Shown here: one piece after another, positions 55,272 to 55,725 of the stretch
How the letters are laid out: every line of letters starts with the position of its first letter
Numbering within the stretch: the first letter of the stretch is position 1
Notes under the pieces: model-generated
What the model was told of the DNA's origin: nothing
The model's input: only the letters and a program-made list of their open reading frames with translations
Database searches by the model: none
Assembly (NCBI GenBank): GCA_036268875.1
Contig: DATATI010000034.1
Location: 25,875 to 89,874, forward strand
Reading direction: 5' to 3'
DNA length: 64,000 nucleotides
From: Polyangia bacterium
GTDB lineage: Bacteria; Myxococcota_A; Polyangia; Fen-1088
Program-made: the position numbers and the translations under genes

Positions 55272-55655
55272 AGCTGCCGTGGCGTCGCCGGCCGTCGCTG
55301 CTGCGCGCGCTGGACGCCCTGCTCGCCCAGCGCGGCTGCAACCGGTCCGAGCTGCTGGGGCGACCTGGCCCGCGCCGGGGTGGGCCGCGCCCGCGCTGCC
55401 AAGGGCGCCGAGGCGGTGGCGGCGTTCACCTTGGTCTAGGACCACCACGCCCGCAATCTCAGCGAAAACCTGACCGAGCTGCAACACCAGCTGGGCGACG
55501 GCGTGCGCGCCACCCCGCAGGTCCACCTGACTCACGACCAGTGCCTGGAGGTCATCGTCCTCAAAGGCCGCGCCGATCACCTGCGCGAACGCGCGGCTGA
55601 AAATTTCGTCGCAAAAAATGTGACCGGGCGAATTTACGGATCGCCGGTTCACTGA
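55272..55655 (+). pseudogene. nikR-like (nickel-responsive ribbon-helix-helix regulator) gene remnant: no start codon, +1 frameshift in a G-run and in-frame TAG
   Basis: Frame A: SLLRALDALLAQRGCNRSELL; frame B after shift: GDLARAGV...[64 protein letters not shown]; alignable to E. coli NikR ([25 protein letters not shown]...HVHINHDDCLEIAVLKG); no intact ORF on track. Confidence 0.5.
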
Positions 55656-55725
55656 TACGATGCCGCGCGACGAGACCTGCGTCTGCTGACAACTAGTCGA
55701 CGTCACTTATGCAAAGGAGCGACGA

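Follow-up and report, generated by a model that had tools for sequence, protein, structure and literature searches.

Organization of the locus

The window (the entire stretch of DNA analysed, 64,000 nucleotides from a Polyangia bacterium) carries a tonB–exbB–exbD1–exbD2 cluster followed, after a gap of 454 bp (55272–55725), by genes for a lipoprotein and for a TonB-dependent transporter of the Oar subclass. Comparison is made throughout with contig L001 (L001 and L002 being one contig) of the Polyangia bacterium MAG SMAG_U5423, which is the closest relative, and with L127, a separate 1.7-kb contig from sample 3300036855 that is 99.2% identical overall to the window. The features of the region are as follows.

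52835–53611, plus strand: tonB (Pfam TonB_C)
53627–54358, plus strand: exbB (Pfam MotA_ExbB)
54355–54846, plus strand: exbD1 (Pfam ExbD)
54852–55271, plus strand: exbD2 (Pfam ExbD)
55272–55293, plus strand: spacer from the exbD2 stop to the junction of the 5' deletion (55293/55294)
55294–55583, plus strand: retained body of the nikR pseudogene, codons 19–114 of 176, with the two ribbon-helix-helix (RHH) helices and most of NikR_C
55357–55360, plus strand: GGGG run, one G longer than in L001 (+1 frameshift); GGG in L127
55437–55439, plus strand: in-frame TAG in place of a conserved Tyr codon, TAC (equivalent to Y60 of E. coli NikR); common to L127
55518–55520, plus strand: CAG (Gln) in place of CAC (His), at the position of nickel ligand H87 in E. 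coli
55584–55600, plus strand: last 17 nt of the former nikR, with the old TGA (55598–55600) now out of frame
55601–55725, plus strand: lipoprotein–Oar leader, 94% identical to L001
55633–55638 and 55656–55661, plus strand: promoter-like TTTACG-N17-TACGAT (match 8/12, under the scan threshold)
55713–55719, plus strand: Shine–Dalgarno sequence AAAGGAG
55726–56796, plus strand: lipoprotein gene (lipobox LFGAGC, Big_5 domain)
56800–60153, plus strand: Oar-subclass TonB-dependent transporter, 1117 aa (CarboxypepD_reg, OMP_b-brl_4, weak Plug)

The products of tonB, exbB, exbD1 and exbD2 share 93–95% amino-acid identity with those of L001, in which the gene order is the same. The lipoprotein gene is the fastest-evolving member of the cluster (81% amino-acid identity to the L001 gene at 3523–4707, dN 0.063); in-frame indels account for its length of 356 aa versus 394 aa in L001, and in other species the identity is only ∼30–35%, compared with 70–80% for ExbB and ExbD. 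The receptor gene is followed, at 60453–63057, by a gene for a ComM-like Mg-chelatase and by recA, each with 97% protein identity to L001, so that synteny with L001 extends well beyond the cluster.

Upstream of tonB are PilZ, 414-aa and TPR genes, of which the PilZ-domain gene (50266–50628) appears to open the Ton/Oar operon. It is preceded by an extended −10 element (TGTGTTACGAT) with an AGGAGG sequence (50235–50268) and, ∼75 bp upstream of these, by the palindrome GTTTTGCAAAAC (50151–50162). Elements like TTTGCAAAA occur in three other loci (L029, L030 and L034), and the palindrome may be a binding site for some regulator.

The receptor scores 43.7 bits against CarboxypepD_reg (PF13620; cutoff 32.3) and 85.2 bits against OMP_b-brl_4, while its Plug match of 20.8 bits lies just under the cutoff of 23.9. 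The hallmarks of the Oar subclass, namely an N-terminal extension with plug and barrel and a position adjoining tonB-exbB-exbD-exbD, are both present. The Ton(Oar) system of Myxococcus xanthus comprises tonB1-exbB1-exbD1-exbD2 and the TonB-dependent transporter Oar (MXAN_1450), and secretion of the PopC protease needs it (Gomez-Santos et al. 2019, PMC6434023). The window has the same content and order (tonB, exbB, two exbD genes and then the receptor), and its receptor resembles Oar in having a CarboxypepD_reg N-terminal extension, plug and barrel. It differs in the lipoprotein gene between exbD2 and oar, in the PilZ, 414-aa and TPR genes upstream and in having a nikR relic, no nikR being reported for the M. 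xanthus cluster in PMC6434023. By its layout the cluster can thus be classed as Ton(Oar)-type, a kind of system that in M. xanthus serves protein secretion and not metal import.

A nikR remnant in the exbD2–lipoprotein gap

The gap was read and translated in the three forward frames. The frame from 55274 reads ...SLLRALDALLAQRGCNRSELLG and the frame from 55272 carries on as DLARAGV..., in agreement with a first-pass annotation made from the sequence alone, which had described a decayed, two-frame NikR reading here and had proposed blastx or tblastn as a check. Profile and protein searches with the repaired translation confirm the similarity: it scores 74.8 bits (E = 6e-21; cutoff 22) against NikR_C (PF08753) and 86.5 bits (cutoff 83) against the NCBIfam NikR equivalog NF002815, far beyond chance. 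Pfam RHH_1 gives no match in the repaired relic, compared with 30.3 bits for the intact protein P0001. The protein search returned 169 NikR relatives, the best being P0001 (176 aa, encoded on L001), with 77% amino-acid identity over 93% of the query; P0004, which comes without contig placement, is the closest protein to the relic (89%). At the DNA level, 55294–55583 is 92.4% identical to the L001 nikR, and alignment of the two leaves 96 of the 176 codons in the relic, the other 80 being gone.

The lesions were mapped by aligning the DNA of the window (55200–55760) with L001. Just past the exbD2 stop, ∼57 bp of L001 sequence (4 + 53) are missing, a deletion that took the nikR GTG start and codons 1–18 (KDPLVRFGVAIEE), including the operator-reading RHH β-strand. 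The TAG lies exactly at 55437–55439, as had been noted previously, at a codon that is TAC in both L001 and L004 (Myxococcales BP_637). After 55583 (junction 55583/55584) a further 172 bp are gone, which is not a multiple of three; this deletion removed codons ∼115–172, comprising the end of NikR_C and a His-rich tail. The four high-affinity nickel ligands in the E. coli NikR structures are H76', H87, H89 and C95; of these, the H76, H89 and C95 equivalents are kept in the relic and the H87 equivalent is Gln.

The two deletions had been overlooked in the first-pass annotation, and its description of the gene as nearly full-length does not stand, codons 19–114 of 176 being all that is retained. 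The residues past ...GRADHL had also been taken as NikR. They resemble ADKILALRGVKQGGIEI and are aligned by the HMMs; their reading as a diverged NikR C-terminus was nevertheless rejected because the DNA is 94% collinear with the L001 post-nikR intergenic region after the 172 bp deletion. This text is translated intergenic DNA with a chance resemblance to NikR, and within the NikR_C domain of the relic, true nikR sequence reaches no further than roughly the first three quarters. The absence of a start codon and of an intact frame was borne out: no open reading frame with a start codon covers the 55294–55600 reading, the sole fragment being a 50-aa GTG ORF at 55503–55655. On the opposite strand, a 287-aa ORF (54843–55706) matches no Pfam family and was set aside as a typical high-GC shadow ORF.

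The stop codon of exbD2, the promoter-like leader and the Shine–Dalgarno sequence are all intact, both deletions ending before they reach them, so that the surrounding system carries on unchanged. The leader block TTCnCTGnTACGATGC...AAAGGAG...CGAATGAA does not vary among loci, regardless of whether they carry nikR, and is a putative promoter.

Recurrence of the lesions in an independent assembly

In JGI metagenome 3300036818, contig Ga0376688_0000050 (L126, L128) is 100% identical to the window. L127 has the same 5' deletion, TAG, 172 bp deletion and substitutions as the window and differs from it at 13 other positions. Since this contig from another sample reproduces both deletions and the nonsense codon, the gene is truly dead, and it is so in at least two strains. 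The frameshift claimed in the first-pass annotation is present in the window relative to L001, in the run at 55357–55360, and is absent from L127, in which the run is GGG and not GGGG. For the extra G there are two explanations, an error in a homopolymer or a lesion that is the most recent of all and still polymorphic; the pseudogene verdict is unchanged either way.

Selection on the remnant

In pairwise comparison of the window with L001, dN/dS is 0.12–0.20 in the six flanking genes and 0.29 in the remnant. With changes polarized using L004 as outgroup, the window branch carries 8–9 non-synonymous changes (including the nonsense change) and five synonymous changes (ω ≃ 0.69; p = 0.55 versus neutral), and the L001 branch carries one non-synonymous and six synonymous changes (ω ≃ 0.06; p = 0.002 versus neutral). 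The counts are small, and a Fisher test of one branch against the other gives p = 0.04 one-sided and p = 0.06 two-sided. Replacements on the window branch at positions conserved in the clade are R40G, E46G, K76N, L92P, H93Q and L100Q, H93Q being at the equivalent of E. coli H87. These substitution patterns indicate that the relic is under relaxed constraint and that the L001 nikR is selectively constrained.

Intact orthologues and the NikR clade

Comparison with clusters in related genomes, which had been suggested earlier, reveals an intact nikR at this position in L001 and L004. The order in L001 is TPR, TonB, ExbB, ExbD, ExbD, NikR, lipoprotein, Oar receptor, ComM-like protein and RecA; the intact gene occupies the same exbD2–lipoprotein gap, with identical flanking genes. 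P0001 contains RHH_1 and NikR_C domains. Known relatives of the family include the NikR structures from E. coli (1Q5V/2HZA), Pyrococcus (2BJ1) and H. pylori (2CA9); P0001 aligns with the E. coli and Pyrococcus proteins over RHH and NikR_C (E ∼1e-22) and has equivalents of all four ligands. Unlike the solved proteins, the relic has no start codon, β-strand, H87 equivalent or C-terminal third, and it contains a nonsense codon. The intact Polyangia/Myxococcales proteins are longer than the solved ones (160–218 aa) and end in a tail, missing from the solved NikRs, that is first His-rich and then basic, being rich in Arg and Pro (alignment A2).

When metagenomes were scanned with the NikR alignment as anchor, 80 loci were obtained, none of which lies in an ExbD2/lipoprotein/Oar cluster. 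About 15–17 of them adjoin a receptor in which an N-terminal TonB_C domain is fused to plug and barrel, and members of the clade looked up individually have such a receptor, a NicO nickel transporter or unrelated neighbours beside them. Where the TonB_C domain precedes the plug and barrel of the adjoining receptor, a separate TonB_C protein is often present as well. Neighbourhoods of a clade NikR with a TonB_C-fused receptor include the following.

L043, 8001–8639 and 9351–11984: clade NikR and TonB_C-fused receptor
L131, 5001–8899: clade NikR and TonB_C-fused receptor

The gene for P0028 (L129, 5001–6236) is directly upstream of a NicO (PF03824) nickel transporter gene and next to an RND efflux system; the adjacency to NicO is evidence that the clade has a real role connected with nickel.

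Distribution and history of nikR at this site

A scan with one genome per species, anchored on ExbD2, gave 40 loci, of which 36 are Polyangia/Myxococcales MAGs with the same cluster. Only L001/L002 and L004 have a nikR gene in the exbD2–lipoprotein gap, to which the window adds its decayed copy. Neither nikR nor a remnant was found in the 30 species-level loci with both flanks visible, in which the gaps measure 130–350 bp, and four further, partly covered loci also gave no nikR signal. The search of these 34 gaps was carried to E ≤ 1 against a tiny database, and the weak matches were rejected as nikR remnants, none having an E-value below 0.07. In the nikR-less sisters of L004 the gap contains two direct repeats, TTCCGT(C/T)AACT, that are not found in the window.

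L018, ∼10470–10510: TTCCGT(C/T)AACT repeats
L022, ∼985–1020: TTCCGT(C/T)AACT repeats

In an ExbD2 + Oar tree with 200 bootstrap replicates, the groupings (L003,(window,L001)) and (L022,(L018,L004)) each have 100% support, and the nikR-bearing taxa form a clade in 0 of the 200 replicates. In both loci with an intact copy, nikR follows exbD2 immediately and precedes the shared conserved leader. The shared site and the tree together point to several clean losses or to lateral replacement, and the history favoured by these comparisons would be either a single origin followed by several such losses or a lateral replacement. The window is one such loss in progress. As judged from this distribution, nikR looks like a lineage-restricted, dispensable add-on and not the ancestral regulator of the operon.

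A predicted NikR operator

The delta-proteobacterial NikR operator is GTGTTAC-N13/14-GTAACAC, with a reversed form GTAACAC-N13/14-GTGTTAC (Rodionov et al. 2004, PMC545781). The intergenic regions between clade nikR genes and receptor genes contain an inverted repeat, GTAGCAC-N13/14-GTGCTAC (or GTGTTAT), that is often in tandem. The half-sites of 7 bp and the N13/14 spacing are those of the reversed signal in PMC545781, with one base changed per half-site. As in the delta-proteobacterial regulon, the boxes adjoin nikR and transporter genes; the linked transporters here are TonB_C-fused receptors or NicO, in contrast to NikMNQO in the delta-proteobacterial regulon. Predicted boxes are located at the following positions, among others.

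L050, 7227: predicted NikR box
L051, 1118: predicted NikR box
L052, 1200: predicted NikR box
L055, 5063: predicted NikR box
L061, 3960: predicted NikR box
L043, 9285: predicted NikR box

When two mismatches are allowed, 39 sites are found in 33 NikR-anchored loci (450 kb), compared with three in 698 kb of cluster-anchored loci, and the repeat is a predicted Polyangia NikR operator. At the same threshold there is none in the window, L001 or L004 (12–20 kb searched of the intact-nikR genomes). At up to three mismatches the window has none (1.7 expected by chance) and neither has L004, and L001 has one or two non-significant intragenic matches, one of them in tonB. The cluster may contain a divergent or half-site operator. 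Two candidates were rejected. A forward-type half-site match at 50237, also found in L004, coincides with the extended −10 and Shine–Dalgarno sequences of the PilZ gene and is present in nikR-less loci too; the right arm of a leader palindrome, GTGACCGG...CCGGTTCAC, is not conserved in L001.

Interpretation of the remnant

The segment 55294–55600 is very probably a non-functional nikR pseudogene, derived from an intact gene that once separated exbD2 from the lipoprotein gene in a Ton(Oar)-type operon of this Polyangia lineage. The product of the ancestral gene would have been a nickel-responsive repressor of the ribbon-helix-helix type, 176 aa long and with a His-rich tail, and the gene would have started 26 bp past exbD2 or overlapped its stop; a start so near to exbD2 implies that it was probably co-transcribed with tonB-exbB-exbD1-exbD2. 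It was inactivated by the ∼57 bp deletion, the TAC-to-TAG change and the 172 bp frame-shifting deletion, all three being common to both strains, with the +1 G added in one strain. Inactivation was followed by drift, giving the non-synonymous excess on the window branch and the loss of a nickel-ligand His. The repressor most likely acted on nickel-transport genes at other places in the genome.

A different account is that NikR regulated this TonB/ExbBD–lipoprotein–Oar system itself and that its decay reflects the rewiring of nickel-controlled uptake. The first-pass annotation had leaned this way by analogy with Helicobacter, suggesting that nickel regulation of the system, or its acquisition as a module, had been followed by rewiring. 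In H. pylori, NikR controls exbB-exbD-tonB and the nickel receptors FrpB4/FecA3 (PMC5385501). The precedent is in keeping with the position of nikR within the operon, intact in the sister lineage, and with the recurrence of clade NikRs beside TonB-dependent receptors or TonB_C proteins at other loci; as in H. pylori, a NikR gene is tied to TonB energizers and TonB-dependent receptors. However, unlike in H. pylori, the link here is positional only, the gene is dead and the receptor is of the Oar subclass, tied to protein secretion in M. xanthus, and not FrpB4/FecA3-like. No NikR box within three mismatches is found in the window, in L004 or in the relevant intergenic regions of L001, and the lone forward-type match is the promoter and ribosome-binding sequence of the PilZ gene described above. 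About 30 species without nikR have kept the cluster together with its leader and promoter-like block, the block before the lipoprotein–Oar genes being the same with or without nikR, and the nikR-bearing loci are not monophyletic. The lipoprotein is not His-rich, and in layout the cluster matches the Ton(Oar)/Oar system of M. xanthus, which secretes protein and is not a metal importer. The analogy with Helicobacter thus finds no support in the operator, synteny and phylogeny comparisons, and nickel control of this system appears unlikely.

Co-option of the remnant, either as a nickel-binding NikR_C peptide made from the 50-aa GTG ORF or as a leader or spacer RNA, is very improbable. The JGI gene caller annotated this ORF, which scores 35.6 bits against NikR_C, and the remnant is probably still inside a transcribed operon. 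Set against this, there is no Shine–Dalgarno sequence before the GTG, and the fragment, from which the H87 equivalent and over half of the domain are missing, ends in a tail of translated intergenic DNA. The folding of the gap RNA is not unusual (z-score −0.74), a scan of the gap against Rfam gave at best 17 bits (cutoff 44) and related species manage with gaps of 130–350 bp that contain no such sequence. Scans of the gap for σ70 promoters and terminators found nothing. The annotated 50-aa `NikR_C' gene is a pseudogene fragment running into intergenic DNA and a gene-caller artefact. The notion that the gene is alive, its lesions being artefacts of sequencing or of assembly in a metagenome contig of high GC content, could apply to the +1 G, which sits in a homopolymer and is missing from L127, and is effectively refuted already by the recurrence of both deletions and the TAG in an independent assembly, by the fact that the start codon is physically gone, as are 80 of the 176 codons, and by an excess of non-synonymous changes, including the lost nickel ligand, that fits true decay.

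Implications

The biology at this locus itself is ordinary: the loss of nikR is the gene decay of a member of a well known family in an uncultured Polyangia population, and its value lies mainly in annotation and method. It provides a clear, well-documented case of a unitary pseudogene at a stage intermediate between the sister genome, where the allele is intact, and other relatives that have lost the gene completely. It also shows that the position of a regulator inside an operon is weak evidence for its targets, and cautions that HMM and by-eye alignments may run on into translated intergenic DNA.

A more speculative and rather doubtful scenario is that in one Polyangia sublineage nikR entered the Ton(Oar) operon, such that the sensor was made together with the TonB energizer and nickel status was coupled to TonB-dependent traffic. 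If this were true, the repeated clean loss (L003, L018 and L022) and the decay seen here would represent a regulatory linkage that was gained and discarded on short timescales. In a related vein, the clade NikR with its His-rich tail, the tandem boxes and the TonB_C-fused receptors would constitute an undescribed myxobacterial outer-membrane nickel-uptake regulon. The predicted Polyangia NikR operator and the TonB_C-fused receptor partner are by-products of this analysis that are useful for the study of metal uptake in uncultured myxobacteria.
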